Notes: a model not told the origin generated them from the sequence alone. Numbered from the stretch's first letter, positions 1 to 25,440 are shown. The stretch is DNA of 64,000 nucleotides from Stegostoma tigrinum (GCF_030684315.1 NC_081369.1:50885598-50949597), one strand, 5' to 3'. Program-made: numbers and translations.

Positions 1-139
1 TTTATCCATTTGCTCATAATACAATATTTCAGCTCCAGAATTGTGTCACTTCCTGATTTTGGGAAAGATTAGAAAAAGCTGTTTCCTGATTGGCAGGTTT
101 AGACCAAGGAAGTGTTACTTTTAAGAAGCAAAAAAGGCA

Positions 140-530
140 AGTGATTTGATTTGCTTTGATTTATGACTGTCATTTGTACTGAGATACAGTGAAAAGCATT
201 GTCTTACATGCTTTACAGGCAGATCGTTCTATACAAACAGATGAGAGTAACAGAACAATGTGCAGGATACAATCTACAGCTGCCAAGAAGGTGCAGCAAG
301 AGTCAATATTACATTAAAGAGGTACATTCAGAAGTCTGATAACAGCAGGGAAAAAGCTGGTGTTCTTGAACCTCTTCTTTCACGTATACAAACTTTTATA
401 TCTTCTGCCTGACAGAAGAGGGTGGAAGAGAGTGTAACCAGGGTGAGAAGGGTGTCTTTAATTATGCTGGTTGCTTTCCCGCTGCAGCAGGAAGTATAGA
501 TGAAGTCAATGGATGGGAGACTGGTTTGCG
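140..530 (-). mobile_element. 3' end remnant of a Rex1/Babar-like LINE
   Basis: Resembles the reverse complement of 8430-8883, including the (gattt)n tail at ~143-162. Confidence 0.55.
342..444. repeat. Segment A; inverted copy at 1366-1468
   Basis: 103 bp reverse-complement match with one mismatch, read directly from the sequence. Confidence 0.95.
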
Positions 531-1080
531 TTCTAGGTATGCAGTTAATGTTTACAACAAGACTTTGAAAGATTGCAGATGGAAAGCTTTGCAGTTTGCA
601 TGCATGTGAGGTTTTGATTTTATCCTTTGTAGAAAGTTATGGACATTTCATTCTTTATATATTGCATGCTTGAATTTGTTTTTGAAGTTTGGGTGCTCTG
701 CATTCCTGTGTGCAGAGCTACATATTTTTTCTCTCCATATGTATCAATCTTTTTATAAAAATAGGGCTTTAATTTTTGTTTGTCAGAGTTGCACACTTAT
801 AGATGCGTACATCTCAAATTATTTGCATTTGCAGTTCTATGTGATCATGTATCACCCTTTGTGTTATGGTCACCCAGCTCAAAAGGATTGGATACCCTCA
901 AATTACAAAGCCTGCTTTCAGCCTTTGTGCTGAACTTCCTCTGTCCTGTGGAGATGGCATCAGCAATGCAGGAACCTGGAAAATGTGGAGCTACCATGTT
1001 AAGTTGGATCTCTGATAAATTCCCAGGTCCAAGAAACTTTCCCAAAGTGGACAGGGAACCAGGTCAGTTAGCTGTGCTGG

Positions 1081-1236
1081 TTGCTCTGTAAATTGTTAAT
1101 GATTATAATTAAGGCCCCATTGGTCAGCACTGGCATTTTACAGATATCAGAACAAGCCTCTCTCCACTTCCTCCATTCCCTCCCAAATACATGTATGCAC
1201 ACAACTGCTGTGAGCAAAAATCATCAGCTGTATCAA
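1081..1236. repeat. Segment B; inverted copy at 1659-1814
   Basis: 156 bp reverse-complement match. The ORF track shows identical peptides on opposite strands (1081..1320+ vs 1605..1814-). Confidence 0.95.
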
Positions 1237-2124
1237 GGCAGCTTCCTAATTTCATGCCATATTCCACCAAAACAAGGGCTCCATGAACAAATGATGATTG
1301 GTGAGGTTGAAAGACCATAACCCCATTTCCGAATAATCCTGTGGGACATTTAGACCTCCAGTTTAACCCTGGTTACACTCTCTTCCACCCTCTTCTGTCA
1401 GGCAGAAGATATAAAAATTTGTATACGTGAAAGAAGAGGTTCAAGAACACCAGCTTTTTCCCTGCTGTGATTGAAATTTGCCAACTTCAATCGATCTTTT
1501 GTGTGCAGATTACAATGATTGCCTGTCCCATTCAGGCATTCTCTACAATTCCTGCCAGCAATGGTATTGCCCTTTTCTGCCATTGGGCCATCAGCCTGAC
1601 ACCTCTACAGACCTTCTGAGCAGAACAGAGAGCAACCAGAAAGCTGCTTTCCAGACAGTTGATACAGCTGATGATTTTTGCTCACAGCAGTTGTGTGCAT
1701 ACATGTATTTGGGAGGGAATGGAGGAAGTGGAGAGAGGCTTGTTCTGATATCTGTAAAATGCCAGTGCTGACCAATGGGGCCTTAATTATAATCATTAAC
1801 AATTTACAGAGCAAATCAGGCCAACGGAGATATTGGCCCGCTTGAAATTTCTTATGGGATACCCACCAAAAATTCAGCCATTTGTTGCCACAGAATTTTA
1901 GGCAAGATTAAAAATTATTGAAATATTCCATTTCGGGATGTGGAGGAAGTGGCATCTTCTGTTTGCACCACATGTGTTTTTATTCATGATCATTTACTGC
2001 AGTAGTTCACTTTGTTGTCAGAGTTACTTTACTCCATATTAAAGGCCTCCTGGGTATACACTGCCAGCATCTCACAGTCTCTTCCTTTTTTTTGAGTTAT
2101 CTACACCAGCACAAACTACTTGCT

Positions 2125-2405
2125 CACAGAATATAGTCTGAGAGGTACTGTTAAGGCCAACCAATTCAGGAGAGATGTTAGGCAGCACTTCTACACACAA
2201 GCTTGGACCTCTCTTGCAAAACCTGCTGTGGGCATTGGATCATTTGTTGATTTTAAATCTGAGATAAATAAATTTTTGTTCATCAAAGGTATTAAGGGAA
2301 TATGGGCCAAAAGTAGGTTTACACAGTTAGACCACAGATCAGCCATGATCTCATTGAATGGCAGAACTGGATCAAGGGGCAGATTGGCCTACTGCTGCTC
2401 CAATG
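2125..2405 (+). mobile_element. CR1-clade LINE 3' end (decayed)
   Basis: Translates as FRRDVRQHFYTQ...SLAKPAV...FKSEINKFL, followed by the typical 3' UTR agatcagccatgatctcattgaatggc...ggcctact. Confidence 0.75.
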
Positions 2406-3044
2406 TAATATTATAATGAGCGAGCGTTTGGTAGGTATTTTCAATTAATTTACCAGCATTCCGTGATGAGATCACTGTCTGTTTCCAAAGCAGCTTTGTC
2501 CACAGCTTTATTGTCCAAACCAGACATGCAAAATATAAAATGATTCAAAACTTCCCACAATCAAAATACAAAACCATGACTTGATGTAGAAATCAATTTG
2601 TGACCTAACCCATAATCCACTCACTCCAGTGGTACCTTTAAATTATTTTGCCCTGTATAATATATAGTTCTTAGTTTAGTTCTTAGAAACCCACCATCAG
2701 TAACTCTTCCAATTCTTCTGAGATCCCACTTTGCAATTTTTCTATTTCTGGGAGGAATGAAGCCAGCCAAACAATTGCTTAAAGACTGGAAGGCATACTC
2801 AGAGGAAAAAATTGTCTTTGTCATTTTCATACTAGGTACAGTTCTGAGATTACACTTGAAGTTCACTATCAACTGCAGATGGGTTGATGGATTTTGATTT
2901 GAATTGACCAGGAAGAGAAAGAAAAGATAATGTGAAGGGAAAGGTTTGTATCCTGATTTTACAAATTGTAGTAAGTTTAAAATCTTTGGAATTTTCTTAC
3001 ACTTTAATGTCAAAGATGAACATAGATAGCTTTAGGACTCATAG

Positions 3045-3165
3045 ACCCATACAGTCATCGTGTCATACAGAGTGGAAACAGGCCCTTTGGTCCTACACTT
3101 GGTTGCTGACCAGGTTTCCCAAACTAAACTAGCCCCATTAGCCTTATTGGCCCATATCTTTCTAA
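3045..3165 (-). mobile_element. CR1-family 3' terminus fragment
   Basis: tggaaacaggccctttgg...aaactaaactag motif, also seen at 58630 and 40150. Confidence 0.6.
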
Positions 3166-3874
3166 TTTTTTTCCAATTCAAATTTGACAAACAATGGTAA
3201 AAGTGCTATACTCCTTGTTTCAACTATTTGCAGAACCAAGCTTCTAAATCTGTTTAATTTCACAGTAGGAATAAGCTGAAGAGATAGAAATTCAAACTAG
3301 TCTCCAAAGAATCACTTAAAATACATATGCAGCACTCACAGAGCTGGTCTAGGGAACTTGAGAGAAGCCTGCAGCTGTCTAAATGATATTAATGGGGCCA
3401 GTAAATAACTAAAACAAAACAAATGACCCACACAAGTGATATGTCACAATAAAGCGTACAGAGCATAAGGGAATTTTATTTTATCTACTGAGTAATCGCT
3501 ATGATTTTAGAGTTATTTCTGATTTCAGTACAATTCAAATATCTGTGCCAAACAGTTAGAGAAGGACCTTAAGGCATTGATCTTCATGCCCAAGTATTGG
3601 ATTTTGATGACATAATTTAATTCACCACAGTAGTATATCTAACTCAAAGAATGATAATCTGCAACCAATGACTGCAATTCAAGATCATAATGCTAAAGTA
3701 TTGTTTGATCTAAAGTTTCAGAGGTGGCTAAAGATGTGTCAGTGTTGAGGCTACTATTGCACTGTGCCATTCCTGTAACCAAAGGGACAACCATTTAACC
3801 AATCACTTAAGCTGAACTCAACACATGTTTTATTGCATGCAAGAACATGATTTTTTTAAAGTGACACAGCAAAC

Positions 3875-4706
3875 AGGAATTTATTGACTGAACAGCTTGC
3901 AGATGCCATATAAATACTGCGGTTGCAAGAGCAGGTCAGAAGTTAGGAATGCTAAGACCATAAGACCATACAACATAGAAGCTGAAGTAGGCTAATTGGC
4001 CCATCGAGTCCAATCTGTCATTCAATGCAATCATGGCTTATCTGGTAATCCTCAATTCCACTTTCCTGCCTTATCACTTTAGCCACTGTTTCCCTTAATG
4101 ATTAGAAATCTGTCTATCTCAGTCTTAAATACACTTTACCACCCAGCCTTGAGAGCCCTCTGCAGCAAAGGATAACTCACTGTCACAAGTAGCTCACCGC
4201 CTGACTCCTCAAAGCTCATCCACCATCTACAACGCACAAATCAACAACATTCAAGAGACTCAACACCATACAGGATAAAGCAGCCCTTTTGATAATCAAC
4301 ACTTATCCACAAGCTTTCATTTCCTTCAGTACCATTGCTCAATGGCAGCAAGATACATCATCTGCAAAATGCACTGCAGAAGTTAGCAAGGGTCCTTCAA
4401 AAGCACTTTCCAAATCTGTAACCACTGCAATCGAGAAGGACAAGGGCAACAGATACATTGGAAATCCACCACCTAAACTTCTGTTCAAGCCACTCACTAT
4501 GCTGAATTGGAAATATAACACTGTTCCTTCAGGGTGCCTGGGTCAAAATCCTAGGTTCTCTTCTTAACGTCATTGTGGGTCTACCTACACCAAATGAACA
4601 AAAGCACTTCAACAGGGTGGCTCAACACCACCTCATCAATGTCAGCTAATGATCATAAGTAAATGCTGGTGCAGCCAGCAATGCCACTTCCCATGAATGA
4701 ATAAAA
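3875..4706 (+). mobile_element. RTE-X-like LINE 3' part, interrupted by a CR1 3' end (-) at ~3953-4172
   Basis: Contains gcaagagcaggtcagaagttaggaat...ctgactcctcaaagc...accatctacaa (AGQRLG...TPQS.STIYK) and the tail taaatgctgg...ccatgaatgaataaa. Related copies lie at 37470-39182 and 44050-44675. Confidence 0.55.
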
Positions 4707-5381
4707 GGACTCTTAACAACCTGACTCTTCAGAAGAGACTAGAGTTGACACAATTTGGTAAGCACTGTTTCTTCTAGAGATAGAAGTTGAATTCAGAACA
4801 GTGTTCTCCAGTGTGCTCATTTTCACTTAGTTAAATTTGGCTAGACTATCAATCTTTGAAATGGCTTAAAAAAATTTAAGTCCCATTTTACTATTGTGAT
4901 GATTCAGCAAGATGGCAAAAGCTTTATGCACATTTCAAAGAAAAGTATAGGATCCATTCATGACATTTGCAGCAATATTCCTCCTGTGCTTTTTCCATAA
5001 AAATACATTAACTCACCTTGCATTTTATGGTTGTTAGTGGTATGTTTTGAGTAGTGACTAGGTGCTTTATATGCTGCTATGTTAGTTCACTGTACTTCAA
5101 AGTTATTAATCATATGAAATCTTTTCAGGTACTTCACTGACATGTTATTTAAAATATGCATTATTTTAAATTTTTTCAAAATATTTCAAAATGAACCTCT
5201 CTCTCAGTCTCAGCAAAACAAAAGGACTGATCATTGACTTCAGAAAGAAAGGAGAACATGCTCCCATTTACATCAACAGAGCAGAGAATAAGGTGGTTGA
5301 CAGCATCAAGTTTCTATGAATAACAATAACTGACAACTTGTCCTGGAGTTCTCGCATAGATGCAACAGTCAAGAAGGCACA

Positions 5382-6830
5382 ACAATAAAATGTGAGGCTG
5401 GATGAACACAGCAGGCCCAGCAGCGTTTCAGAAGCACAAAAGCTGACGTTTCGGGCCTAGACCCTTCATCAGAGATGGGGATGGGGTGAGGGTTCTGGAA
5501 TAAATAGGGAGAGAGGGGGAGGCGGACCGAAGATGGAGAGAAAAGAAGATAGGTAGAGAGGAGAGTATAGGTGGGGAGGTGGGGAGGGGATAGGTCAGTC
5601 CATGGAAGATGGACAGGTCAAGGAGGTGGGATGAGGTTAGTAGGTAGGAGATGGAGGTGCGGCTTGGGGTGGGAGGAAGGGATGGGTGAGAGGAAGAACA
5701 GGTTAGGGAAGCAGAGACAGGTTGGACTGGTTTTGGGATGCAGTGGGTGGAGGGGAAGAGCTGGGCTGGTTGTATGGTGCAGTGGGGGGAGGGGACAAAC
5801 TGGGCTGGTTTTGGGATGCGGTGGGGGAAGGGGAGATTTTGAAGGTGGTGAAGTCCACATTGATACCATTGGGCTGCAGGGTTCCAGAGCGGAATATGAG
5901 TTGCTGTTCCTGCAACCTTCAGGTGGCATCATTGTGGCACTACAGCAGGCCCATGATGGACATGTAATCTAAACAATGGGAGCGGGAGTGGAAATGGTTT
6001 GCGACTGGGAGGTGCAGTTGTTTATTGCGAACTGAGCGGAGGTGTTCTGCAAAGCGGTCCCCAAGCCTCCGCTTGGTTTCCCCAATGTAGAGGAAGCCAC
6101 ACCGGGTACAATGGATGCAGTACACCACATTGGCAGATGTGCAGGTGAACCTCTGCTTAATAGGGAAAGTCATCTTGGGGCCTGGGACAGGGGTGAGGGA
6201 AGTGGTGTGGGGGCAAGTGAGCATTTCCTGCGGTTGCATGGGAAAGTGCCGGGTGTGGTGGATTTAGAGAGCAGTGTGGAGCGAACAAGGGAGTCACGGA
6301 GAGAGTGGTCTCTCCGGAAAGCAGACAAGGGTGGGGATGGAAAAATGTCTTGGGTGGTGGGGTCGGATTGTAGATGGCGGAAGTGTCGGAGGATGATGCG
6401 TTGTATCCGGAGGTTGGTGGGGTGGTGTGTGAGAACGAGGGTGATCCTCTTTGGGCGGTTGAGGCGGAGGCGGGGTGTGAGGGATGTGTTGCAGGAAATG
6501 CGGGAGACGTGGTCAAGGGCGTTCTCGACCACTGTGGGGGGAAAGTTGCGGTACTTGAAGTACGTGGACATCTGGGATGTGCGGGAGTGGAATGCCTCAT
6601 CGTGGGAGCAGATGCGGCGGAGGCGGAGGAATTGGGAATAGGGGATGGAATTTTTGCAGGAGGATGGGTGGGAGGAGGTGTATTCTAGGTAGCTGTGGGA
6701 GTCGGTGGGCTTGAAATGGACATCAGTTACAAGCTGGTTGCCTGAGATGGAGACTGAGAGGTCCAGGAAGGTGAGGGATGTGCTGGAGATGGCCCAGGTG
6801 AACTGAAGGTTGGGGTGGAAGGTGTTGGTG
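5382..6830 (-). mobile_element. Penelope-like element, 5'-truncated (left arm of palindrome)
   Basis: RT C-terminus (LTFLDLSV...HFKPTDSHSYLEYTSSHP) and GIY-YIG endonuclease (NVVYCIHCTRCGFLYIGETKRRLGDRFAEH), frameshifted. Confidence 0.93.
5445..5472 (-). ncRNA. Minimal hammerhead ribozyme motif (Penelope pLTR)
   Basis: The - strand reads CUGAUGA-AGGGUCUAGGCCC-GAAAC-GUC. Confidence 0.8.
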
Positions 6831-8308
6831 ACCTTCCACCCCAACCTTCAGTTCACCTGGGCCATCTCCAGCACATCCCTCACCTTCCTGGACCTCTCAG
6901 TCTCCATCTCAGGCAACCAGCATGTAACTGATGTCCATTTCAAGCCCACCGACTCCCACAACTACCTAGAATACACCTCCTCCCACCCATCCTCCTGCAA
7001 AAATTCCATTCCCTATTCCCAATTCCTCCGCCTCCGCCGCATCTGCTCCCACGGTGAGGCATTCCACTCCCGCACATCACAGATGTCCAAGTTCTTCAAG
7101 GACCGCAACTCTCCCCCCACAGTGGTCGAGAACACCCTTGACTGCGTCTCCCGCATTTCCCGCAACACATCCCTCACACCCCGCTCCTGCCTCAGCCGCC
7201 CAAAGAGGATCACCCTCGTTCTCACACACCACCCCACCAACCTCCGGATGATACAACGCATCATCCTCCGACACTTCTGCCATCTACAATCCGACCCCAA
7301 CACCCAAGACATTTTTCCATCCCCACCCTTGTCTGCCTTCCGGAGAGACCACTCTCTCCGTGACTCCCTTGTTCGCTCCACACTGCCCTCCAATCCCACC
7401 ACACCCGGCACCTTCCCCTGCAACCGCAGGAAATGCTACACTTGCCCCCACACCTCCTCCCTCACCCCCATCCCAGGCCCTAAGGTGACTTTCCATATTA
7501 AGCAGACGTTCACCTGCACATCTGCCAATGTGGTATACTGCATCCATTGTACCCGGTGTGGCTTCCTCTACATTGGGGAAACCAAGCGGAGGCTTGGGGA
7601 CCGCTTTGGAGAACACCTCCGCTCGGTTCGCAATAAACAACTGCACCTCCCAGTCGCAAACCATTTCCGCTCCCCCTCCCATTCTTTAGATGATATGTCC
7701 ATCATGGGCCTCCTGCAGTGCCACAATGATGCCACCTGAAGGTTGCAGGAACAGTAACTCATATTCCGCTTGGGAACCCTGCAGCCAATGGTATCAATGT
7801 GGACTTCACCAGCTTCAAAATCTCCCCTTCTCCCACCGCACCCCAAAACCAGCCCAGTTCATCCACTCCCCCCACTGCACCACACAACCAGCCCAGCTCT
7901 TCCCCTCCACCCACTGCATCCCAAAACCAGTCCAACCTGTCTCTGCTTCCCTAACCTGTTCTTCCTCTCACCCATCCCTTCCTCCCACCCCAAGCCGCAC
8001 CTCCATCTCCTACCTACTAACCTCATCCCACCTCCTTGACCTGTCCGTCTTCCCTGGACTGACCTATCCCCTCCCCACCTCCCCACCTATACTCTCCTCT
8101 CTACCTATCCTCTTTTCTCTCCATCTTCCGTCCGCCTCCCCCTCTCTCCCTATTTATTCCAGAACCCTCACCCCATCCCCCTCTCTGATGAAGGGTCTAG
8201 GCCCGAAACGTCAGCTTTTGTGCTCCTGAGATGCTGCTGGGCTGCTGTGTTCATCCAGCCTCACATTTTATTGTCTTGGATTCTCCAGCATCTGCAGTTC
8301 CCATTATC
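6831..8308 (+). mobile_element. Penelope-like element, 5'-truncated (right arm of palindrome)
   Basis: ~300 open codons of RT C-terminus plus GIY-YIG with Cys/His motif (ORF 6810..7739). Ends with the complete tail gcatctgcagttcccattatc. Confidence 0.93.
8185..8212 (+). ncRNA. Minimal hammerhead ribozyme motif (Penelope pLTR)
   Basis: CUGAUGA core, GGGUC/GGCCC stem II, GAAA, palindromic ACGU stem III; predicted cleavage after GUC at 8212. Confidence 0.82.
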
Positions 8309-9096
8309 AAGGCACAACAATACCTCTTTTTCCTCAGGTGGCTTGAGAAATTCAGTATGTCGATAAGAATCCTCACCAACTTTACAGATTCTCCATAGAA
8401 ACCATGTTATCTGGTTGAATAATGGCCTGGTATGGCAACTGCTATGCCCAGGAATGTAAGAAACTACAGAAGGAAGCCAAGGCCACCATGGAAGCCAACC
8501 TTCCATTCCTAGACTCCAATTCCACATCTCATTGCAGCAGAAAGGCTGCCAACATTGTCAAAGACCCCTCCCACCCTGTAATGCTCTCTGATGACCTTTT
8601 CCATCAGGTAGAAGATACAGGAGCTTGAACATCCATCAACAGGTTCTAGAACTGCCTCATCTCTGTCGTTATTAGACTGATGAATGGACTCTCTAACTTC
8701 AAATAATATTGATCTGTTAATGTTGATCTTGCTTTGTGCACCTCCTATGCAATGTAATCTGCATGCCTCACTCTGTCTAAGCTCCCTGTGTTCTGTATGT
8801 CCTTACCAACTATGATCTCTTTGCAAACAAAGCTTTTCGCTGTACTTAGGTACATGTGACTACATTTAATCAATCAAATCAAATAGTTTTGAACATTTCA
8901 TCACACTTTAGAATAAAACGTATAATTACACTATCTTAAATTCAGAAAACATACTGTGGTTGCAACCATCATCAGCCAGTTGAGTAATGTATAATCACTT
9001 AAATGGCTATAAATGTCAAGCATATTTCAAGTTCTTACTCGCATTTATGTTGTAACAATCTTTCTTTACCTGCATTGTTTTCTAAATGCCAATCTT

Positions 9097-9482
9097 GGGT
9101 TGGGGATAACAAAGTTTCATCTGAGTCAGGAAGAGCATTTTGAGTTCAAACCCTGCTCCAAAATGTGCAACACTGTTTGTTAGAGCTGTCAGCTTTCAGA
9201 AAAACTGTTCAACTGAAGCTCTGCGTTTCCTCAGGTGGATGTGGAAGACCCATGACTCTAGCCAAAGGAAACCATTCTCCTGGAGTTCTGACTAGTGTCT
9301 TTCCCTGGGCCAACATCACTTGAATACATTATCTAGACTTTATTATCTAATTGTCTTGTATACATTCGCTACTGCATTTTCCGATGTTGCAACAGAAACT
9401 ACATTTCAAAAGTGCTTAATTGGTTGAAGCAATTTGGAACAGTCTGGGAGAATGGAAGTATTGATATATAGACTTGCAAGTC
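9097..9482 (+). mobile_element. DeuSINE-like (SacSINE1/AmnSINE-type) SINE, decayed
   Basis: Head tctgagtcag...gttcaaacc, central ggtggatgtggaagacccatg, tail ttcaaaagtgcttaattggttgaagcaatttgg. Family matched from memory. Confidence 0.55.
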
Positions 9483-9559
9483 TAATTTTGGATTCTATAG
9501 TGAAGAACAGACATGATTGAGCACTTAGAGAAATTTGCACAGTGTAGAGGCAGCCAGTG

Positions 9560-10812
9560 TAAAATCCAATAAATAGGTTATGCTTATTATGTTTATGAGA
9601 AACCGTAGTATTATACAGAAGAATGTCTATGGATGCAGTGTGCATGGACTTCTGGAAGGCCCTCAAAAAGTTTCCACATAAGATATTGTCACGAAAAATG
9701 AAAACTCAAACGTTTGAAAGTTTATTATTGAAACAGTTAGAAGATTGGTTATGTAGAAGACAGAGTCTAGAGGTAATGAATAAGTACCAAATTGGAAAAA
9801 AATTGGGTGTCATTGTTGCACAAGTTTCTGTGCTCAGGCTGTAAATAATTCATTATTTTTATTGATGACTTAGATGGTAAAGAAGAATGATAAATACATG
9901 AGTTTGTTGTTAATATGAAGTTAGGTGACATAGTAAGTAGTGTAGATGGGACAAAATAATTGCAAAGGAACATTTGTTAATTTAATATGAGCACTTTCAA
10001 TGCACCTAAATGTGAGTACTTTGTGCTAAAACATAAAATCTGGGTTTTCTTAACACGATGAAAATCTAGAAACAGTGGCAGTTCAAGGGCTGCACATCAA
10101 TAAAATGTACAGATTTTTAAAAAATGACAGGGGCCATTAGATGGTAATGTTCCTAATTAGAAGGTAAGGATATAAAAGTACATATTAACATATACATAAA
10201 TTTTCAGAAGAAGGGTCCAGACCCGAAATATCAGCTTTCCTGCTCCTCCAATACTATTTGGCCTGCTGTGTTCATCCAGCCTTACACCGTGTTACCTCAA
10301 AATATAAAGGTGGATGCTTTGCTACACCTGGTCAAAGGTCTGGTTAGATCACATCTGAAGATCTGTCTTTAATTCTAGGAAAGGCAACTTAAAAATGATT
10401 TATTGGCCTTAGAAGTGCAGCACTGATTCACCAGAATGTTGCCAAGGCACCAAAGATTAAAATATGGGGAAAGATCACAAAAATAGAATTATATTTTTGT
10501 ATAAATATAATTATTGCAAGTAATTCAGAGATTTTGCATTTTGAAAGAATTGATTGGAAATCTTCTTGCTGATAAAGGACAAGGGACAATATCTTACAAA
10601 TCAGAGCCAGGCCATTCAGGAGATGAGGTAAAATAGTTGATCCAACTCAATCAGTAGTTTTAAATCACACATCAATTGGCTTTTCCGAGCAAAAGGTACC
10701 AAGGAAGATGGAACCAAAGTGATTGGGTGAAGTTGATATATAAAAATAAGCCACAATTCATTGAGCAGTAGGATATTGAGGAGCTGAAAGGCCAGTTCTT
10801 AATTTTATGTTC
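9560..10812 (+). mobile_element. CR1 LINE ORF2 relic with a small Penelope pLTR fragment at ~10202-10298
   Basis: MDAVCMDFWKALKKFPHKIL resembles the DVVYMDFQKAFDKVPH motif of CR1 RT; a CR1 3' end lies near 10740-10812. Confidence 0.7.
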
Positions 10813-13800
10813 CTACATATTTCTTTAATGGCACTGATAAATTAACTACTTAGAAAATTTGTTTTTACTCTCTTTTTCACCTGTTCCTGCAGTTGCTACT
10901 CGCAGGTCACTATCAAAGTAGTATAGTTTCTATCTGTTTGCTGTTGGCCATCACAGTAACCTTTACAATTAATTGAAAATGCTATTTTTCTGCTATACTT
11001 AACATTCACAGCATATTGGTTTTGAATTTACAAAATAACTAGAGAATTAGTGTAGTCTCATGGATTACTGATATGTGGAATATAAATTCCTGGTACAGTA
11101 ACCCCAAGCAGGGGTTAAAGTAGGATGGGGTAAAATTGCTCCCAGCAATAACTTTAGAGAAAGCTAATCGTAAGTTAGAAATCATTTGTTATTCATGCTA
11201 ACTCTGATGGTAATAGTATCAATGAGAGGCATTTCACATTGTTGATATTTTAATATGGAACAATTAAATTTTTGCTGTACCTGATTCGGAAATGCCTGAT
11301 GATGACACTGGATAGATGTTACATTTCTCAGCTCTGAAATTCTTAACAAAATATTGAAATAAGTATCAATTTAAATCATGAAAATTAATTCTGCAATTTC
11401 AACCACAAAATAATTCTCTTGCCATGCTTAATTTATAATGGTGCTCCTTTATCCAATGCCACTGGGTAAAATGTCTATTCCTTTCACCACTAGCATCACC
11501 TACTAGTGGATAAGGTTGATTAAAGGCTTGCCTCAGGCTTATTTTCCACATTGTGGTTCCTTAGCTAATCGTTTTGTAGAACAATGCAGCCCATAATCCA
11601 AAATAAGAATGTCATTTTCAGTGACAAATTATTTTACCTAGTGACCTTAAGTGGAATATTGTGAGGCTTTTGTTCTCTTGCTCGCAATGCCAATTCAATG
11701 AAGATTATTGCCCCTGAAATCAGGAGCAAGACACAGGACAAAACATTTTTTTACATGTGAGTCAATATACAGGTAGGATCACATTTTATTTCTATTACCG
11801 TATGCATTCAAAGAAATATGCAGTTGTTATGGTAGGAATTGTATGTTGATTATTAAACTCCAAATAACTACATTTGCTCTGGATGTGAATCAGTCAAATT
11901 ATTTGATTTGAAATCAGTATGTCCAGCTAATTAGTCTCCTTAAGAATAGTAGTTTTAATCTGACTCATGCACATCAATACATACGAGAACACGGAGAGGT
12001 GCCTAAATATACACGCAGTGGAAATAGCCAAGAGCTTTCAAAGCGCAATGAAACACGAGGCCTATGCGGCTCACAAAGGTCATAGCCAGTGCTGTACATA
12101 TTTATGTTCATTGTATAGTCATCTTGAGATTTACTGTGTAACGTGTACTTTGAAGTGCACTGTATAGAATTATTTGGAAAGGAACTGTTCTGTGCATGAG
12201 AGCATTTGATTAAAAAAATTCTCTAAACAGGAAATACTTGCAAACGTCTTGGTTCTTTGCAGCAATCTGATGAAGTTTATTTACGTTTATGCACATTCCT
12301 CAAGTGCACCCCACATACATATAAAAACAAGAATCCTGGGAGGGGGACCGAAAACCAAGAGGTTTATTTCTTTCGTCTTAGGTTACATTAAAACAAACCA
12401 TTTTCACACAGGCTCAGTAGGGACAGTGGTATTACCCAGAACTTCCAACGAGCTGATACTTTGGAGATAGTTTGAAGTTTACTTTGCCAATGTCTGATCT
12501 CGCCAGATCAGTGCCTTTGTTTACAGGTCAGTCTCGAGACACCTGAAAATGTTACTTTGAGGACTGCAACACGCGGTCTCTCTCTTCATCTCTCGGAAGC
12601 AAAATCTTGACTACATTAAAATAACTTTAATATCATTCTGCTTTCATTTCTGTCTAAAATTTGTAAATAATGCAATCCGTTGCTCCGATTGCCTCGGCCC
12701 CGTTGGTAGTGGACAAGTATTGTCTTTCTGTTAAAATTGAGCATAAAAATAGCCGGTGATAATACTTTATTACAATTCAGATTTTAAAAATCGCTAGTTA
12801 TTGAGAATTACTTCGATGTGAAACTGTATTCGTGGTCATTCTTTTAAGTTACTTCAATAAAGAAAAGATCAATCGTTTTACCTTACGGCATACGTGCGAT
12901 ACCCAATTTTATTATAAATGTGAGCTAAACATTCACTTAGACCCGGATTTTCTTATTTTTCCCGCCCTGTTTATTTGATAGCAATTGGCATTAGAAATGA
13001 TAAAATATGATGTAATAGAAAATTGTCACTTTTCCTAAATCTAAAGAAAATGTTTTCTTTCAGAGCGACGCTGAGTATTTTAAATCTCTTGCTTCAGACA
13101 GGTGTCCTCTCGGCACCTTTAAGTTAAAACAAAAGGTGAAAGCACAGCACCTCCTGGTATGACCTGTGTTATGAAAGTTACACGGGAGTGGAAAGATTGC
13201 AGACTCCAACGTGCAGAGAGTAGCGTTTCCACAGAAAACCTTCAAACTCTCCCGAGCTGTGGGAATTCGGTGCTGTTTTGAAAGGGAGCTTTGTTCAGAC
13301 GCGGGACCTCCGTCAAGTGTTGGATCTTTTTCCTACTCCCATTCCGCTTGTACACTCTCCAGTCCGGCTCTGACTCTCCTAACACGCCCGCTTTTTTAAA
13401 AGTTTTTTTTAAAGGATGTCGCTTTGAGGAGAAAAGAATAATTTCGATGTATGTTTTCTAACCTTAACAGCGAAGGGCCCTGTAACATATTTTTAAATGG
13501 ATTGGGTAATTCAATTAACTATTAGAGGGGAATTCCGCCTACCAAAATAAACAGCTGTCGGTCTTCTATGAGCCCTGGTGCTTGAATTACCATTAGCAAT
13601 GATATTATAGTCACTATCTTTAAACACAACTAGTTTAGATTATAGAACGATTGTCGCCTTAACATCTTAGCACCTCCTTGGCACAATAAAGTTTAGCGCG
13701 GCTGGCGTTTGGTGTAATCGCCCAACTTGTGGTGTGGAATCGTTAGAAACATTTTCTCAAGACACCTAAGCTTGTTGCTGCAGAATCAGAGAATGCCTTG

Positions 13801-14151
13801 TTCTGTGCGACAGTCGTACAAATTACCCGAGTGAACAGGATTACACTTGAGTCTGCACTTTTCCCCATTCTGTTACAAAACTATGGAAACCTCGGCAGCC
13901 GCTAATTCGCGCAGAAAGTGACGGCGCTTCCAAAAGTAAATGACATCATCGGGTTCGGCTCAAGCGGTTTCACCTGGTATGAACAAGGGCCAGGTGCTGT
14001 GTTCCCGTTCCCGTTATTCAATACGTTGTTGAAACATCTCGGTTTGATGGGGAGAGGGGTGAAAAACCAAACAAAGCGGCATAGATAACACAACTTGTCG
14101 AAATGAAATAACAAGTGATACGCTATTCAATCGAAATAGTTCAACAGATAT

Positions 14152-14157
14152 TTTATT
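14152..14157 (-). terminator. Candidate FOXL1 poly(A) signal AATAAA
   Basis: tttatt on the + strand, ~635 nt past the FOXL1 stop; usage not demonstrated. Confidence 0.4.
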
Positions 14158-14792
14158 CTATATTACATATCAGCAAAACAGTGTAGTCAACAGAAGTTAC
14201 ACTAGACGTCAAAAGTCCTCTGCAAGAAATGAAGCGTTCTTTAGCGTGCGGGATGGTAAGGGAATAAAACTAAACTTGATTGTACGGAATAAAGACATTG
14301 TTTTCGCCCAGATATACATGAATACAGCTGGGGTCTATCTCATATAATGGTTGATATCAGGATGTGCTGGCTTAAGCAAGCGGAACGTTTACTGGTGAGC
14401 TAATGGGATTTGTATCATCTAAAAGCTCTGGATGCAGCAACTAAAACGATACCCCGTTTAACTCGACTTAGTTTCAATGTATATGAAACCCCCTCTGAGG
14501 CATGATCAGGCGCCACATAAATGGAGAGATCCCTCTCATCGGTTTATAAAAAATCCCCGCCCAAGAGATGATAATAGGGGGTTCATTGCCATGGGTCTGT
14601 TTTAACTGCTGGAAACAATTAACCCATCGCTTCTCATAAAATTAATCTACCTACACACTGTAGGTATTTAAATATTCAATTCACAAAAAGTTCAATAAAA
14701 ACGTTGTCATCCGACAGATGTTTGAGGCTTCGGTCAAATATTTGTTGTCGTACCATAGAAGGTGATCAGGTGATTTATGATAAATTACTGAT

Positions 14793-16256
14793 CTATTTAA
14801 AATTGAAACATGTTTCTGAACAGGTTAAGGGAAGGTACGAGTAAAAAGGAAAACCGATTTGATAATATTTACCAGGTAAGTGATGTGAATCAAACGGCAA
14901 AGAAGTGTTTAAAGCGGCGTAGACTTTAGTCGAGGTATCTAAAAGCGAATTGCCGAAACATCTATTGGGTAGGTGTGTTAAATTCATTTTTGAAGTTGAA
15001 TTTTTACCAAGCTGGTCACTTTCACAACTGGTGTCGCTGTGATGGCTTTCTCTGGATAGGATACTTTCTATGCTAAAACTCTTGGACCGTGCACTGTGTG
15101 AGTTGGAGCTATTACCAGCTTTCTGTCCTCTGTTCTGATGGCTGCTGTTTCCAACCACTGAGGGGGAGCTCAGTGCTTGATTTCCGGGGGTTCTCACAAC
15201 CCGGGCTGAGTTGATACCCCGAGGTGATGGCTGAGAACTAGAAGATGGTTCGGCCGGCGTAGGCGAGTCTGCCTTCGTCGCTCTTCCTGGCATCTCCTCA
15301 CCTTGGTTCCCCTTCATGCAAGGGCCTGTGGATCCATCTTGCCCTGGCAAGGCCGTGAATCCAAATGCACCAGAGGCAGCGGTTGGAGGAGGGAAGGACA
15401 CGGCAGGCGGAAGAGCTGGTGAGGAAGAGTTGGTCCACACACGACGTTGGACTGGATGGGTCACCGCCTGGTCAATAGACTCCGCAGCAGGCGGATAAAG
15501 AAAAGTTACTTCGTCACACCTCAGTGCCTTGACATTTTTGCCCCCGATGCTTGACGGTGCCAACTCAGGATGGCAATCATTTTGTTTCTTTCCGCCGCTT
15601 TGAGTTCTCAAATTTCCTGAACGCGCTCTGTCTGACGAATCGCCGGCTTGTTTGAAGTTCTCCGGGTCAGATGAGTTGGGTCTTGGTTTGATGTCATGGT
15701 CAAATCCAGGCTTGGGAGACTCGTCAGCCTTCGTGCACTCTTCACCAGTTTCTGATTTGGCCCTCTTCCTCTCCATCTGCTCCTGAGCTCCTTGGGACTT
15801 GGCCTTTCTTTTTCTCCGTCTGTAGTTGCCATTTTCAAACATGTCCGTGCATCTCGGATCCAGGGTCCAGTAACTCCCCTTTCCAGGTTTGCCCTTCTCC
15901 CTGGGGACTTTGACAAAGCAGTCGTTCAGTGAGAGGTTGTGCCTGATGGAGTTTTGCCATCCTTGCTTGTTGTCATGGTAAAATGGGAAGCGCTCCATGA
16001 TGAATTGGTAGATGCCGTTCAAAGTCACTCTCTGTTCAGGGACACTTTTGATCGCCATGGCAATCAGGGCAATGTAACTGTATGGAGGCTTTTGAGGAGG
16101 CTCGTGCCTGGCCATCACGTTATTTCCACTGAATCCCAAGGAAGGGAACATCCTACTGTCCCCTCCATATAGGTACACTGAAGAACTACTGTTCAGGCCC
16201 ATTGTAGATCCTGACCCTCTGAGTTGCTGCAACTGATTGCTATAGATATGGTTCAT
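14793..16256 (-). CDS. FOXL1: Forkhead box protein L1, single coding exon, 487 aa
   Basis: [19 protein letters not shown]...[75 protein letters not shown] is diagnostic of FOXL1. Has an eh1 motif (FSIESIL) and lies in tandem downstream of FOXC2. Confidence 0.96.
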
Positions 16257-16439
16257 AGCTGTTCCCGGCGTCGCCTGAGCAAAACTATTCTTTTTTTTCT
16301 CTCTGCCTCTTCTTTTCTTTCAAACTTCCAAAAGAAATCACAGTTTACAACAAAAAAAATGTGGACTTGCAGGAGTCCACCACAGACCCTGTGTGCTACA
16401 GTTCAGCAAATGTGAGTACTGCCTCTCTTAAGATTGTTC

Positions 16440-16639
16440 CCACTTTGTCCCTTCGTCATGGCTTAAAATGTTAAATAATTGTTGTAAGTTGCTATTTTAT
16501 GTTGACTTTGCACTGGAAAATAAATTGTCTATGATAAACAGTCGTTTTATTCTCAGCCCACCCACATTAATTAAATTTCATTGCAAAAAAAAGCCTAAGA
16601 CTTCTCCACGTGTCTTCGAGGTACCAGCCAATCGCTTGC
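16440..16639 (-). promoter_or_regulatory. FOXL1 proximal promoter candidate
   Basis: Immediately upstream of the CDS. Contains forkhead-type motifs (tgttgac, taaaca), homeobox ttaattaa and a CCAAT at ~16628; truncated by the gap. Confidence 0.5.
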
Positions 16640-16795
16640 NNNNNNNNNNNNNNNNNNNNNNNNNNNNNNNNNNNNNNNNNNNNNNNNNNNNNNNNNNNNN
16701 NNNNNNNNNNNNNNNNNNNNNNNNNNNNNNNNNNNNNNNNNNNNNNNNNNNNNNNNNNNNNNNNNNNNNNNNNNNNNNNNNNNNNNNNNNNNNNN
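16640..16795. other. Assembly gap (156 N)
   Basis: Run of N. Confidence 1.
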
Positions 16796-19504
16796 AAGCA
16801 CACAAACACAGTTACCAACAAAATCCAAAAAGACTCAAACTTCTGCAACATATGCATACTTCTTTTAATCTGTGCGAATCTATCACGACTTCAGATATTC
16901 CTCAATCACGGTGACTTTAAACGGATGGTGGCACTTTCATTGTTTTTTTGTGTGTGCTTTTTGCTGTTGTTGTACGCAGCTGGTCATTTTTTGTGCAACC
17001 ATCTGCAAGGCACAGGTTGGGCCGGAGGCTGTCAGGAAGAGGACTTACGAAGAAGGCAAATTCCAAGCGACAGAATTCCATAAAAGGGGAACTTGGCAAA
17101 GAGTGACAAAAAAGTCTCTTTCGTGGACCACTTGCATTGTTAATGTATGCCTCTTGCTTTATGTTCTATACTTTTCCTGTTTACAGCAAGAATGGGGATT
17201 ATAACAACTTTACAAGTAATCACAGCTGTCCAGTGCTTACATAGAACGCTAGTCGCTTCGGACTTGAAAACGTTTGTTCATTGAGTGAATATAACTGTGC
17301 CAATTGTGCAAAGATGAATTGTGAAGTGTGTTGCAATAGCTTTGATGGAGAAACACTTTCTTTTCTGTCACTCGAGTCGTGTGAAACATCGAAACGCGAT
17401 CAGAAGTGAGAGTGCGAATGCACGGTTTGAAATTTGGCCAGAATTTGGAGCAAGGGTTTTCAAAGTAGTGCTGAAGCAATGATTTGCTTGGCAGATGCGA
17501 AGCAATTTCAGACCGTCAAAAGTCACCCCGGATATCTCTGTGAAGTGAGTGGAATTGGATGAGGAGGGGCTATTAGTAAATATGAGACAGTGCAAGGGCA
17601 AAACAAAACCCAAGGGAGTCTCATGAAACAAATCCTGAAATTCAAATAGGTGGCTGTGTACTTAAGTTGCCTGTTTTTTTCAGTCTAGTTCAGGCTAGGT
17701 AACTCCCCCACACTTCCATGCTTGCCTCCAGAAAAAGGATGTTGCAATGCTTCTTGCTAGCAAATGATAACGGTAACTTTATGCCTTGAAATGGCATTTT
17801 TATTTTCATTTATTTATGGTAAGTTCAACAACTGCATGTTTTGTCCTTCTGGCATGAAGATGTTAAAAAAAACACAGTATGTGTACATCCTGTTAACCTC
17901 TTCGGGGCTGGAGTAACTTTTTTTGCCATTTTCCAAAAATAGAACGTTAGACGCTTGTGTTTCGTTCAGTCAAAATAAAACACCAAATGCAGACATCCTG
18001 TTAACCCACAACTACAGACTTCTCTCTGCCTGAAGTTTACACATGAGATGTTTTCAGTTTATTCTGAATCCTCTTTTCCTCAATCTGGTCGCTAATAGTT
18101 GCAAAATCGTCCTGATAATTTTTTTTAAAAACAAATAAACGAACTGATTTCTGTCTAAATATTAAGACGTTTTGCGATATTAAGACGGTAAGGACTCCAG
18201 CTTAAATAAATGAGTTATTCAGCTCTTTTTTTGCAACTTTTGTTTATAATGTGAAAATAAACCTTTAATTTTGATCAACTTCAGTACTTGATACACTTGT
18301 TCACATGAGTTTGTGTTAAAGGAACCTTTGCGACAAGTTCACTGCTTATCTTTCCCTGTCCGGCCCAATACCTTAGAGTGTGGCTTTCACAGCGGGACTG
18401 AATTATCCGAGTTTAATTACATGGTCTACTGAGGTAACACTGAAAGTCGTCCACCCTTCGTATTGTTCACCGAAAAAAAATAAACGAAATGTTTTGTTTG
18501 CCCATTTATTTTAAAGTCTTTGGTTGAAGGAACGTCTCATCCAAGAGAAATCTAGGCAAGAAAAATAAAAAAAATGACATGGAGGATGTCCAATCCCAGT
18601 AGGGAAAGGAATTATCACGTGCGAAGGGTGATCTTGCTGCCTTAGTCCAGCACTTGATGTTTTCATGGCAAGGATGCTCCTTAGTGTAATTATTCACATT
18701 GCAACAACCCTTCAGAAGCTTTCATTTCAGCTTCACACGCTGCAATCTACGCACATCAAGGATAGGCTTGAATGATGAAGTGAGTGAGGGTTGTGCTTGT
18801 CATTTCAGTAATTAACTTCAAATTGAAATCTGAGAAGCAATAATGACTTTCGCAGAGATTCGGCGGCTGGATAAACGCTGACAGGTTTCGATCTGACTAC
18901 GTTAACCGGCCCGACCCGATCCAGCCAGGACGAATTGTTGGCCATGAGAAGCCCACAAAGTATCAGTAATAGATTTAAAAGAGTATCATTTTCAAATAAC
19001 ACTGAACAGATCCCTACGGTCAAAATTATTTCCTGATAAACGATATTTAAACCATCTGATTGCAATAAGATCGACTGCCATAACGTTAAGTATTCGCATT
19101 GCGCTCTCCAAATTCAGTCCAGATTTTTTTTCACCACGACGTGAACGGCTGTACATTTCGTGGTGCATTATACAAGATCGCGTTTGCAATCTGAAGAACT
19201 GTGAACATGACCCGCGTTGTTTTATTTACGCTAAATCAGTCACTGCACCTCAATCAGTGGTTACATAGGAGGTGCTTTCAGCTACGTGGCAAGTATCTTA
19301 CATATATATGTCTGAGCGCTGTAATTAAGAAAGTAATGCGCACCGTTCGGTGAGTAATTATTATTAAAACTATTTGACTCGTTGCTGTTATATCACACCC
19401 TTCGTATCAAAAGTTGCAATGTTTAATCGCCTTATTTTTCCCCGGAAAAGCTGACAAACGTTATATGAGACTGGAAATAAATTCAGTTTTGCTTTCGTAA
19501 CTTG

Positions 19505-19925
19505 AGTGAACCATAGGATGGTACAGCACAGGAGACAATTCGGAACGTCATGTCTGTGAGGTCTGTTTGAAAAAAAATGCCTTAATTAGCCCCTCTATCC
19601 GGCTTTCTCCCCATAGCCCCATAAATATTACCCTTCGACCAATCAGCCAATTCCCTTATGAAACTTATTTTTGATTTGCTTCCACCACCCTATCAAGCAG
19701 CATATTTCAGGTCATCACAATGTTAATGTACGTTAAATAAAATGCTTTCCCCATCCGCCCTTTGATTGTTTAGCCAATGCGCATAAAACTGTGTCCTTTG
19801 CCACTGCTTGTGCCATGGGAAAGTTCTCTGTCAAAACAAGAAAAAAACTGCAAGGTTTTGAGCATCTTTATCAAATCTCCCTTTGACCCTCTCTGCCCTT
19901 AGGACAACAATCCAGGTTCTCCTGC
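19505..19925 (-). mobile_element. Old CR1 3' end
   Basis: catagga...tacagcacagg..., gcttccaccaccct, atcaaatctccc...ggacaacaatccag are typical of a reversed CR1 3' end. Confidence 0.55.
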
Positions 19926-22900
19926 CTTTTCAACAAATAATCACCAGCCTTTGCCAAATTGCTGACAGAAATTATTCAGCCCTGTACAGTTTTAATATTA
20001 TCAACCGAACTGCAGCTTTGGGTCCGTTTCCCGAAGGGAAGCGGAATGGCATTGTACTGTGTGAACATGAACTAAATTATATTCTTCGCTGTCGGCCAAA
20101 GATCAAGAAAATGCCACTTTGTACCCACATGTGTTTCAGTATTCGAAACGATTAAAATCGGAAATAAACGAGTAAGGTAATGTCAGTAGAAAGACATGTT
20201 ACCATCCCAGACCATAAATTATACTGAATGTCTGGCGCACTATAGCAAGTAATCAGGGTTAAAGCCTTTAATACTCCTAAATTGTATTTGGTCAGCTTAT
20301 AAATTAAATGGTTCGCGTCAATTTCAAACACATTAAACAAATATAAGTATTGTATATATAAACAAATACAGGGTGCGCCTCTCAATGATCACTTATTTTG
20401 TTTTGAAAAGAAAAACAGTTTTACTTTTAAATGTCCTGGTCTGGTTTTGGTTTATTGTGAACCTGAGGAATACAGGGTTCGATTGCATTTCCATATGTTC
20501 CGACCCCCGCCCCCTCCCGGTTAAAGAATACGGTGCAATATATACAATTACACTGGCTTTTGTTTTCGGCTGTTATCTCGGTCATGAACTATACCAGCCC
20601 TACAGGCAGCTGACCGACCAATCAACGCCGCATGAAGAATAGGTCCGCAGTCTGTAGAAAACCCGAACTGTTACAGTGCTTTACGCAAACCTTGTTTATC
20701 CCATGCGAGAACCGTGCCTAGGGGATAAACCTTCAATCAGTGGCCGTACGATAACTGCCATTTACTCACGGACTCCCACTATCTCAGTCAATTCATTGCT
20801 TTACAAACGAGACAAAGTATTATTCCAATTCCTAAACGGGGCTGGAACTAGTTAACAAATCGTCTTTATTTTTTAAATCTAAAGAAAGATAGCTTACATG
20901 GATGTGTTTGAATTACAGGTAGATGGGAACCGTGCCAATTTTACAAGAGAATGTCCAATGTCTAATTTTATCAGCAAACCCCTTCGGCTTATGGTTTCTA
21001 TGTTGAATTTGAAAGAAAAAGAGAAGCCGTCTCCTGTACCTACGTAACAATTGGCCACTAATGATCCTGAGAACGAGTTTTTTTTTAATTTTTAAAACGG
21101 GAAGAGACATTTGCTGTTTATTCAAGTAAATAATGTAAGGGGTAAATTTATCCTGGGAAACAGTCAGTAGAAGCGGGCCCAAGTATTCTGTTGACAATTT
21201 ACTGTAGGATTCTAGATAATAGTTTGTTCCATTTAGAGGATTTAAATGAGAGGATCACCTTTAGGTGGTAAATAGACAGTTTACTAATTCAGCCTCAGTG
21301 CCTGTTGTTATTCAGAGCTGAATCTACGCAAGCGATAAGCCTATAACATTTACAGGCTTGTTCTATCTAAACGTAAAATCCTTATTCCGCTTGTATTGAG
21401 CACTGAGTCAAAGTTCATCCTGCATGTTCTTTCTCTTTAAAAAAATCGTCCTTTTAAAACTTTGCCAGGTTGCTTAATATATTCAACGTAGTCACGCTGG
21501 GTTCAGTGTGGTAGCGTGCGAAATTTGAAAAATTATATTAAAAATAATAACGCCAGCACAAAATTGATCTCAGATTGTCGGAAAAATGCACGCGATTTCC
21601 ATGCCTGGTTCTTGGCATGAAACCGCATACACAGCTTTTTTTTTTACAGAAACAGAGGAGTCATTTCATTCCAAATTTGCACTGGACATTTTAGTTTATT
21701 TGGATCATGCAAATCAATGGGATCCCAAAGCGCCAGACAGACTTCCGTTCTGATTACCCAACGCCAGATGTTTGCGCATTCTATTCGCAGCTGACTTTCA
21801 ACTAGATATTGTTAATGACAGGTGCAGCTATCTACCGAGGCCAGGAGGCTGTGCCTGAGAAGATAGAGCGACCCGATTTGAGACAGAACCCGCATGTATG
21901 CTCAGAAACACGCTCATTCTTTTATTCACATGGCTTGCCTCTTGGTCAATTATAATTCAACTCGGGCTTGCTTGGTGCACTTTCCAGTAACTTATATCAG
22001 GTCCAAACCTGCCAAGGCTAGCTTACAATGGAGTCTACCGGAGGAATATTTGGCTACAAGCCTTAAGAGTTGCTACATGACAGCAAGTCAGAGCACCACA
22101 GACCAGTAACTGTCGTTATAAAATACGCCACCATAAATAAATATTGAATCAAAGACTATGTCCAGAAAACATTGTGCGTGTAATTGATATTAAATTTCAC
22201 AGATCAATCGGAATTCTGTAAATTTCACTTGTCAAAATAAGTTACATTCTTTTCACTTAAATCCAATACTTCAAGTGGAATTAATGCTTCAGGGGGATAG
22301 TGGCAGGCTCTTTGAGGCCTATTCAGGAAGCATATCTGCAAAGTAAAATTATACCGGCCTGGTTTCAGCTTTGTTGTGAGTTTCTGCCAATCGTAATCAG
22401 GTTTTAGCATTTAGGCGGAGATGAGCTTTTCTGCTGCAAGCCCCGTTCTTTCAGTCAACTGAAACTGGTGTTTGGTGGGTTTTGTACATCTGATGAATGA
22501 ATTTAAAATTGATGACTAAGTCTGTCAGTGAATGGACCTGCACCGTCTCAAATTTCTAAGTTCTAAGGCTTCGGGAACGTAAATATAGTTCAGGACTTTT
22601 AACTTTGCAAATCTTATGCTTTGTAATTGATAAATATTTTTAAGAGGGGGCAGCACATCCCATACAGGAGCATCTAGGAATCGGCATATTTATTAAAGTT
22701 CTAAAGGTTTATTTTATCGAAGCAAAATAAAACTAATTATTTGGATCAAACAGTAATCAAAAGTGCATTTCATAGGGGTACGACATTGTCCTGTAAATTA
22801 TGGGCTCAGACATTACGTAGAGTTCACATAGTCGCCTCAGATCCTTGACATGTCTGCTGTAGACTTGTTCTCAGTTACATTCATGGGTTTTAGTCAACCT

Positions 22901-24033: not shown

Positions 24034-25440
24034 TCAATACTTATTGCAGTCGTAGGCGTATGGCCCTGAATGCCGGTATACTGACGGTGTTGATCGGTAA
24101 GGGATTTGACAGCTTGTATTCCCGCTCACCTGATGGTCATTGAGTGCTGAGCTCTCAATGCCGAGTCGGTGGGAGTTAAACATCTCCCGTACATTGGGGA
24201 AAGTCTGCTGCTGGCTGGCGAACGTGTGGCCCGGGAGGTGGTTGAGATCTGCTCCGTGGTTGAGGTACCAGGAAGCGGCTTGTCCCGCCGGCGCCCCCGC
24301 CTGCTGAGGGTGACTCGGGCTGAGGACACCTTCCGGCGCTGTGCTCAGATTCATGGCGTTCAGGGAGGAGCTGCCGGAGTGGTCTGAGATAGCATCCTCC
24401 AGGCTGGTTGGTACCAGCATGTGGCTGCTCCTGTCCCCCGCGTACAGGCTCATGGTTCTCATACTGCAATGGTAACTTCCACTGGAGTCCATATTGTGGG
24501 TGCATCCTGGGCTGTACACGGCTTGCTGCGTTGGAGGGTAGTTCACCGGCAGTGAGGAGCCCATACCAGTCCTGCTGGAGCTCACAGCCACGGGGCTGAG
24601 GTCCCCTGGAGGAGATGTCCTCAATGTCATGATATTTTCCACGCTGAAGCCGGAGAGGTTGCTGTTGGTTGTGTTGTGATCCGGGATGGAGTTCTCTGTA
24701 GACACGGACGGCGTGGAGGCCACGCTCCTTGGGCTGTCCTGGATCAAGCTGCCATTGTCCGGGCTCTCCAAGCTCTCGACCTTGGTGATGACAGGCATAC
24801 AGGGCGAGCCCGCTTCGTTCTTGACCACCACCTTCTTCTCGGGGCAGGTGTCGGTCTGCGAGGCGACGTGCTGACCCCCTTTCGCCTCCTTCTGCTGCCG
24901 GTCGCGTTCCTCCTTGTCCCTGACCGCGTCTTTCTTCTTGAACCTCCGCCTCCTCCGCAAGAAGCTGCCGTTCTCGAACATGTTGTACGAGTCCGGGTCC
25001 AGCGTCCAGTAGCTGCCCTTACCCGGCTTTTTGTCGTCACGGGGCACCTTGACGAAGCACTCGTTCAGGGACAAGTTGTGGCGGATGCTGTTCTGCCAGC
25101 CCTGTTTATTCTCGCGGTAGAATGGAAAGCGGTCCATGATAAACTGATAGATCCCATTGAGAGTAATTTTCTTATCAGGCGCGTTTTGGATGGCCATGGT
25201 GATCAGGGCGATGTAGCTGTAAGGAGGCTTGACTAGGTCTTTAGGTACCGGCTGCTGGTGATGGTGATAGGGTCCATACGATCTCGCCATGCCTGTTGCG
25301 TACTGCTCGTGGCCCGGGTACATAGTCATCGGGGTGGGCATGCTGCCGTAAGTGCCGGCGGCTCGATAATAGTTTTGATCGCTGAGGTAAGGCACGACTC
25401 CCAGAGCATTGGGGTCTGACACTGGGTAACGCGCCTGCAT
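24034..25440 (-). CDS. FOXC2: Forkhead box protein C2, single coding exon, 468 aa
   Basis: N-terminus [29 protein letters not shown] is FOXC2-type rather than FOXC1-type. FoxC forkhead domain, eh1 motif (FSVENIM), C-terminus YAYDCNKY, adjacent to FOXL1. Confidence 0.97.

Follow-up and report, generated by a model that had tools for sequence, protein, structure and literature searches.

How does a retroelement come to lie in a genome as two head-to-head copies of itself with almost nothing in between? The question is raised by a locus in a 64,000-nt stretch of DNA from Stegostoma tigrinum (GCF_030684315.1 NC_081369.1:50885598-50949597, hereafter the window), which the initial annotation had read as a Penelope palindrome created in a single insertion. 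Self-BLAST returned positions 5382-8274 of the window as a single inverted self-match, 95.1% identical, whose innermost paired stretches (6388-6823 and 6831-7266) have 7 nt in between, and both arms and loop thus lie where they had been placed. Differences between the arms fall on 62 of 1440 aligned columns, in addition to a few indels of 1-3 nt, so that the "near-perfect" palindrome is one of 95.7%. The palindrome is real, and it is one old insertion of a Penelope-type element. The positions of its parts are collected in Table 1.

Two parts of the unit turned out differently from their first description. The 7-nt centre has the size and place given to it, but it is not a spacer: it is a piece of the element, forms part of the left arm, and overlaps the right arm by 1 nt (6831). 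At 25 of 29 other loci, the match begins no more than 3 nt from the start of the arm, with ..TTCACCAAC or a closely similar sequence just before it; at the remaining four, it begins further inside the element. Since the ..TTCACCAAC found upstream in other copies is the loop on the opposite strand, the left arm extends 7 nt further at its 5' end. The arms do pair, but the unit as a whole is not the symmetric palindrome that had been described, for the right arm is longer than the left arm by 34 nt at the 3' end. This one-sided tail had been overlooked, and it is the most mechanistically telling feature of the unit.

Table 1. Features of the palindromic insertion and its target site (window positions)
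Feature	Position	Strand	Description or basis
Host decayed LINE fragment, before insertion	5195..5373	+	Paralogue comparison
TSD, left copy	5374..5387	+	14 bp, AAGGCACAACAATA
Left arm	5382..6830	-	Tail-less 5'-truncated copy of the 3' part of a Penelope-like element
Unpaired centre GTTGGTG	6824..6830	-	Element sequence of left arm
Right arm	6831..8308	+	Tailed 5'-truncated copy; 6831-8274 pairs with left arm
C-X4-C-X2-C linker CNRRKCYTC	7419..7445	+	Right-arm translation; motif definition PMC8557442
GIY-YIG endonuclease core VVYCIHCTRCGFLYIGET..	7530..7643	+	Pfam PF01541, E=6e-4, 20.4 bits, cut-off 22.6
Minimal hammerhead-like motif, putative (CTGATGA - stem II - GAAAC - GTC)	8185..8212	+	pLTR, by eye
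Tail	8275..8308	+	34 nt, right arm only
TSD, right copy	8309..8322	+	14 bp, AAGGCACAACAATA
Host decayed LINE fragment, after insertion	8323..8760	+	Paralogue comparison

The window also holds repeats of other kinds. Two interleaved inverted duplications, neither of them Penelope (339-444/1366-1471, 106 nt at 98%; 1081-1236/1659-1814, 156 nt at 100%), perhaps represent a small local inversion with duplicated breakpoints. A 212-nt direct repeat (39749-39960 and 41079-41290, 98.6% identical, 1330 nt apart), with no ORF of at least 90 codons between its copies, is either LTR-like or a local duplication. Positions 57256-57464 form a decayed self-inverted match of 209 nt (69%).

To which element do the arms belong? 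The left arm comprises the RT C-terminus, a Zn linker, GIY-YIG and the pLTR, and is frameshifted near 6219. The start of the right arm lies about 25 codons 3' of the YIDD motif of RT, the catalytic core being absent, and its reading frame is closed by a stop at 7737-7739 that is the same in both arms. As both arms start about 25 codons past YIDD, they are dead. In Pfam, the palindrome arms match GIY-YIG only; two longer copies (L052 and L062) match RVT_1 (E 1.6e-5 and 1.8e-4) and GIY-YIG (E 0.002 and 0.004) in one frame, all below the Pfam cut-offs. Between the GIY and YIG blocks, the right-arm translation has two Cys (VVYCIHCTRCGFLYIGET..HLR..NHF), the CCHH motif defined for EN+ Penelope-like elements (PMC8557442). 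A CX2-5CxxC linker upstream of GIY-YIG is common to Neptune and Nematis and missing from Penelope/Poseidon (PMC8557442), and by its linker alone the present family would be placed with Neptune or Nematis, not with Penelope/Poseidon. The 34-nt tail, the inverted arrangement and the TSD make up the pLTR layout of EN+ Penelope-like elements. The putative hammerhead-like motif, of the kind of the known minimal forms (PMC4209133), has a mirror copy at about 5445-5472 (minus strand), and its stem II folds; an Rfam search gave no hammerhead match for it. The 29 Rfam matches obtained, all to microRNA-precursor models on the central hairpin and below the gathering score, were rejected as hairpin artefacts. 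What was inserted here, and is now dead, is an endonuclease-bearing Penelope-like retroelement of an abundant family.

The target site tells how many insertions are to be counted. The two TSD copies match at 14/14 positions. In 11 of the 11 host-LINE paralogues examined, the upstream flank runs directly into the downstream flank with one copy of the 14-mer, so the 14-mer is a true duplication and a single 14-bp TSD does surround the whole unit, as had been noted. Its last 6 nt in the left copy (5382-5387) double as the left-arm end and are also complementary to the internal start site of the element, a microhomology. The host LINE copy is about 78% identical to its many paralogues. Its frame resumes across the TSD (..VKKAQQ / KAQQYLFFLRW..), in line with the first description; the copy is nevertheless decayed, with stops and a frameshift. 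The host was examined as a C-terminal fragment; the ORF of a paralogue matches PF09004 above the cut-off, a domain that would point to a Rex1/Babar LINE. The window has two intronless forkhead ORFs, at 14793-16256 on the minus strand (FOXL1-like, 487 aa) and at 24034-25440, also on the minus strand (FOXC2-like, 468 aa). The former ends 6471 nt from 8322, which agrees with the reported distance of about 6.5 kb from the FOXL1 stop; the gene is a forkhead gene, but the name FOXL1 is one that we presume from a motif and from its place beside the FOXC2-like ORF. Nothing was found that ties the insertion to the forkhead ORF.

Might the palindrome be an artefact, a fold-back formed in the library or in the assembly? 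This is scarcely credible. A fold-back read has identical arms; the arms here differ at 62 sites and by several indels, only one of them carries a tail, the 7 nt at the centre come from the element, and the unit is bounded by a true TSD. The initial annotation had thought an artefact unlikely as the arms differ, and all of these features agree with that judgement. On the opposite side, public contigs gave no piece over the centre, a result that carries no information in a repeat of this kind. Four runs contained 90% of the flank words, with no RNA run among those listed, and, the family being so abundant, about 300,000 pieces fell on the arm; no listed contig piece bridges the left or the centre junction, the longest at the centre being 32 nt, and contigs drop such repeat paths. 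In a relative (organism B), contigs end at 5115 and 5240, short of the left junction. The flank of organism B is 8.5-9.6% diverged, about twice the arm-to-arm distance, and its site is predicted to be empty.

We then consider the arms as a pair. Measured against the family majority, 10 departures are common to both arms, 34 are found in the left arm only and 31 in the right arm only, and at 1 both differ (gap columns included). The substitutions, 33 left-only and 28 right-only, are randomly interleaved (runs test z=-0.86): both arms have decayed independently and evenly, and the substitutions scattered since insertion, as described before, are indeed present. At the time of insertion, the arms were likely identical, and each has gained about 2% substitutions since then. 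The arm-to-arm distance of 4.3%, against 3.8-4.3% to the best other copies, is not below the family distance, as is expected of a young, star-like family with about 2% decay per arm.

The same equality of arm-to-arm and family-wide divergence would be seen if two insertions, or one insertion and a later repair duplication, had come to lie back to back and gene conversion had kept them alike, a reading that we regard as very improbable. The differences do not have the corresponding pattern. They are evenly spread, and the signal for patchy gene conversion at this locus alone is not significant (chi-square P=0.38). CpG decay was rejected as their main cause: 11 of 62 fall on the 88 CpG sites and 51 on the 1350 other sites, and the difference rate at CpG sites is only about three-fold higher. 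The sorting of differences into CpG decay and gene conversion, which the initial annotation had proposed as a check, therefore yields a minor part for the former and no significant signal for the latter.

The arms also share variants. Six shared states are rare (in at most two other copies) among the 1440 columns, counted in a panel selected by resemblance to the right arm; none of 508 unlinked long pairs has as many, the highest count being five. When a wider panel was used (93 arms, 5% threshold), the locus shares 4 rare variants, and 4 or more are shared in 3 of 747 unlinked long pairs. Three of the shared rare variants occur in none of 42-45 panel copies. Over the family, shared rare variants amount to 3.5 per kb in 22 linked pairs versus 0.25 per kb between unlinked loci. 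They could also stem from later arm-to-arm conversion. Across pairs, shared variants lie farther from differences than expected by chance (P=0.005), and five small-loop palindromes have 6 differences in the inner 100 nt versus 12.1 expected (P=0.04). Arm-to-arm conversion is thus possible family-wide, and these weak signs count in favour of two insertions.

How common the layout is bears on the same issue. We sampled 126 stretches of 10 kb (1.26 Mb) at round coordinates, on large contigs only. The family occupies 87,660 bases (7%) of this sample and is present in 100 of the 126 stretches. Head-to-head pairs number 59, and single arms that extend to the 3' end 135; another 48 fragments (edge-cut or internal, 4 of them from non-random loci) were excluded. 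One tailed and one tail-less arm make up 56 of the 59 pairs, 2 pairs have no tail, and 1 is unclear. TSDs of random pairs, where detected, are 13-18 bp. Both arms exceed about 160 nt in 12 random pairs; in 6 of these 12, the 5' ends are no more than 25 nt apart, versus 0.57 expected, and 0 of 100,000 shuffles reach 6. In four random pairs, the arms exceed 400 nt and have near-equal ends.

A near-twin of 2.8 kb was met in the random sample (L167, 5356-8164), with arms that differ at 2/1368 positions and a 17-bp TSD. Using it as a query led to a very young subfamily with further palindromes, for example L215 (2.2 kb). A query with an 801-nt internal piece of the young copy gave no candidates, its words being too common. 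The arm differences of young pairs are 2/1368, 0/282, 0/246 and 5/1088, the last in L215. As young pairs have near-identical arms, the palindrome at 5382-8308 is an older example. Extrapolated from small counts on large contigs, the genome would hold about 150,000 head-to-head pairs; small counts likewise give about 12,000 (3,300-31,000) symmetric pairs with arms above 400 nt and about 3,500 (90-20,000) palindromes of the present size. The palindrome, first presented as unusual, is not so, given the 59 pairs in 1.26 Mb, the younger twin L167 and a layout already in print.

Several other copies were recorded. The palindromes at L167:5356-8164, L215:1466-3700 and L206:215-2833 (2.2-2.8 kb) have arms 0.15-0.9% apart and copies 99-100% identical, and the family with these members may still be active. 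In the window, 37610-37826 repeats the layout in miniature (one arm of about 124 nt and one of about 93 nt, left arm tailed, 2-nt loop, 97-98% identity to the reference copy), and 34881-36301 is an older (82-86%) asymmetric head-to-head pair of a 1.14-kb tailed arm and a 275-nt tail-less arm. Single fragments of the family, 71-93% identical to the reference copy, lie at 10204-10286, 50751-50863, 53478-54447 and 63143-63238. At random loci, most short insertions start at about 2430-2460 of the reference, which is the start of the hammerhead motif and not the cleavage triplet; this zone may be the RNA 5' end when RT starts in the leading pLTR. Tandem pLTR-derived units with periods of about 440 nt and 58 nt, retrozyme- or satellite-like, are found at L163:4573-8434 and L156:9485-10000. 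Three near-full-length copies on one contig (L200, L202 and L203) are flanked by the same fragments, and are therefore parts of a larger segmental duplication.

Against two insertions stand, in addition to the pattern of differences, the one TSD round the unit, a centre without second TSD or target DNA, the tail/no-tail rule in 56/59 pairs, and the fact that the youngest insertions are already two-armed. The two-insertion reading is largely refuted. That a single event copied one element region twice, in opposite directions, as had been proposed, is well supported by the single TSD, the tail/no-tail pairing, the coupled 5' ends and the shared rare variants.

By what route were the two copies made? 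Each arm holds element sequence missing from the other; simple copying of one arm from the other is therefore out of the question, and both nicks must have been extended on an element template. The tail-less arm is longer at the 5' end in 8/12 long pairs and here, and it is therefore no copy of the tailed cDNA; conversely, the tailed arm cannot have been wholly copied from the tail-less arm. Probably, both target nicks primed reverse transcription on one template and the cDNA ends were joined. The GIY-YIG enzyme, likely a dimer, would nick the two strands at positions 14 nt apart. Of the 3' ends so made, one would prime at the outer RT start site, at the tail end, and the other at an inner site 34 nt upstream, aided by the 6 nt of microhomology. 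Both cDNAs would likely stop at almost one point (7-8 nt apart), the 5' end of a single RNA that was broken or had stalled; they would then be joined end to end over the 1-nt overlap, followed by fill-in. If there are two start sites and the two nicks do not take the same one, one-tailed pairs such as the 56/59 are to be expected. In young pairs, both outer junctions have an overlap of a few bases with element sequence (read by eye).

Coupling of the 5' ends would follow from a single RNA with a single end, and also from a fold-back of the first cDNA. Here, the tail-less cDNA would stall, fold over the 7-nt loop and be copied as DNA into most of the right arm, and a short second cDNA from the other nick would supply just the tail. 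This scheme is, in our estimation, unlikely. It accounts for coupled ends and identical arms without strand displacement, the loop is left-arm sequence and long enough for a hairpin, and the tail-less arm is 2-10 nt longer in 5/6 symmetric long random pairs; self-priming has been suggested for such junctions (PMC3846280). It still requires priming at both nicks. Against it, just 1 nt could pair at the junction here. The 2-nt loops at L143, at 37610-37826 of the window and at L215 are tight for a hairpin primer, and in 4/12 long pairs it is the tailed arm that extends further. Nor were target-derived mismatches from the tail-less end found copied into the tailed arm among the pairs read by eye, although a shared G at 8273 could be such a copied mismatch. 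We prefer end-joining over fold-back given the 1-nt overlap here, the existence of 2-nt loops and the longer tailed arm in 4/12 pairs.

Not all pairs come from one template, as strongly asymmetric pairs share few rare variants: 7/11 pairs with offsets above 450 nt share none, and such pairs may use two templates. At the present locus, one RNA and two RNAs from one source locus are both compatible with the data. The palindrome is a by-product of the way in which the family inserts, and implies no function.

How do these features compare with known systems? Inverted 5'-truncated copies, head-to-head palindromic junctions, a one-sided tail and a TSD are known from PMC3846280 and PMC8557442. Like the present locus, Pen2a_Av and other EN+ insertions (PMC3846280; PMC8557442 Fig. 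2 legend) have head-to-head copies with a palindromic junction, a 30-40-nt tail at one end, a TSD round the unit and a hammerhead-like pLTR motif, which is putative in the present case. The present locus differs in that both arms are 1.45 kb and equally truncated and the insert is wholly palindromic; what the text consulted of the two papers describes is mostly a short inverted pLTR by a longer copy, with no counts of arm lengths or shared variants. The layout itself is thus already published, and this locus is an ordinary case of it.

In the green anole Poseidon element PAc, RT starts at two sites 30-40 nt apart that bound the tail, and the protein, a predicted dimer, cleaves and extends both strands in vitro (PMC11167929). 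Two start sites together with two-strand cutting and extension predict the pairing of tailed and tail-less arms found here, and the accessible part of that paper does not connect the start sites to inverted insertions. PAc belongs to a different clade, Penelope/Poseidon, without the C-X4-C-X2-C linker of this family, and it primes without homology according to the same text (PMC11167929), in contrast to the short overlaps in this family. In the open-access literature, we found no paper joining two start sites to the inverted layout, no count of such palindromes in this animal group, and no shark-specific or twin-priming account. L1 twin priming, in which both target strands prime on one RNA, yields an inversion within one TSD, and L1 inversions mostly involve non-overlapping parts of the RNA. 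Here, by comparison, the two cDNAs begin no more than 34 nt from the 3' end and span one common region, and the outcome is a duplication.

The locus itself carries little weight, being a dead insertion in a dead LINE and one of an estimated thousands. A wider proposal is possible, if doubtful: that Penelope-like elements here routinely form perfect spacer-less palindromes of 1-3 kb, with one RNA as the template on which both target strands are primed at the two start sites flanking the tail, and that thousands of these palindromes grow old without being deleted or homogenised. Long, close and similar inverted repeats are unstable in model organisms (PMC7999016). If true, the proposal would explain how this class of elements builds inverted structures, and it would mean that a vertebrate germline can bear long palindromes much more readily than would be predicted from yeast or mammalian data. 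For work on Penelope transposition and its later steps, the pattern across the family is useful: tail pairing, coupling of the 5' ends and variants common to both arms yield concrete predictions for the existing in vitro system. The many long young palindromes would offer a natural series from which the rate of palindrome loss or remodelling in a vertebrate may be read.
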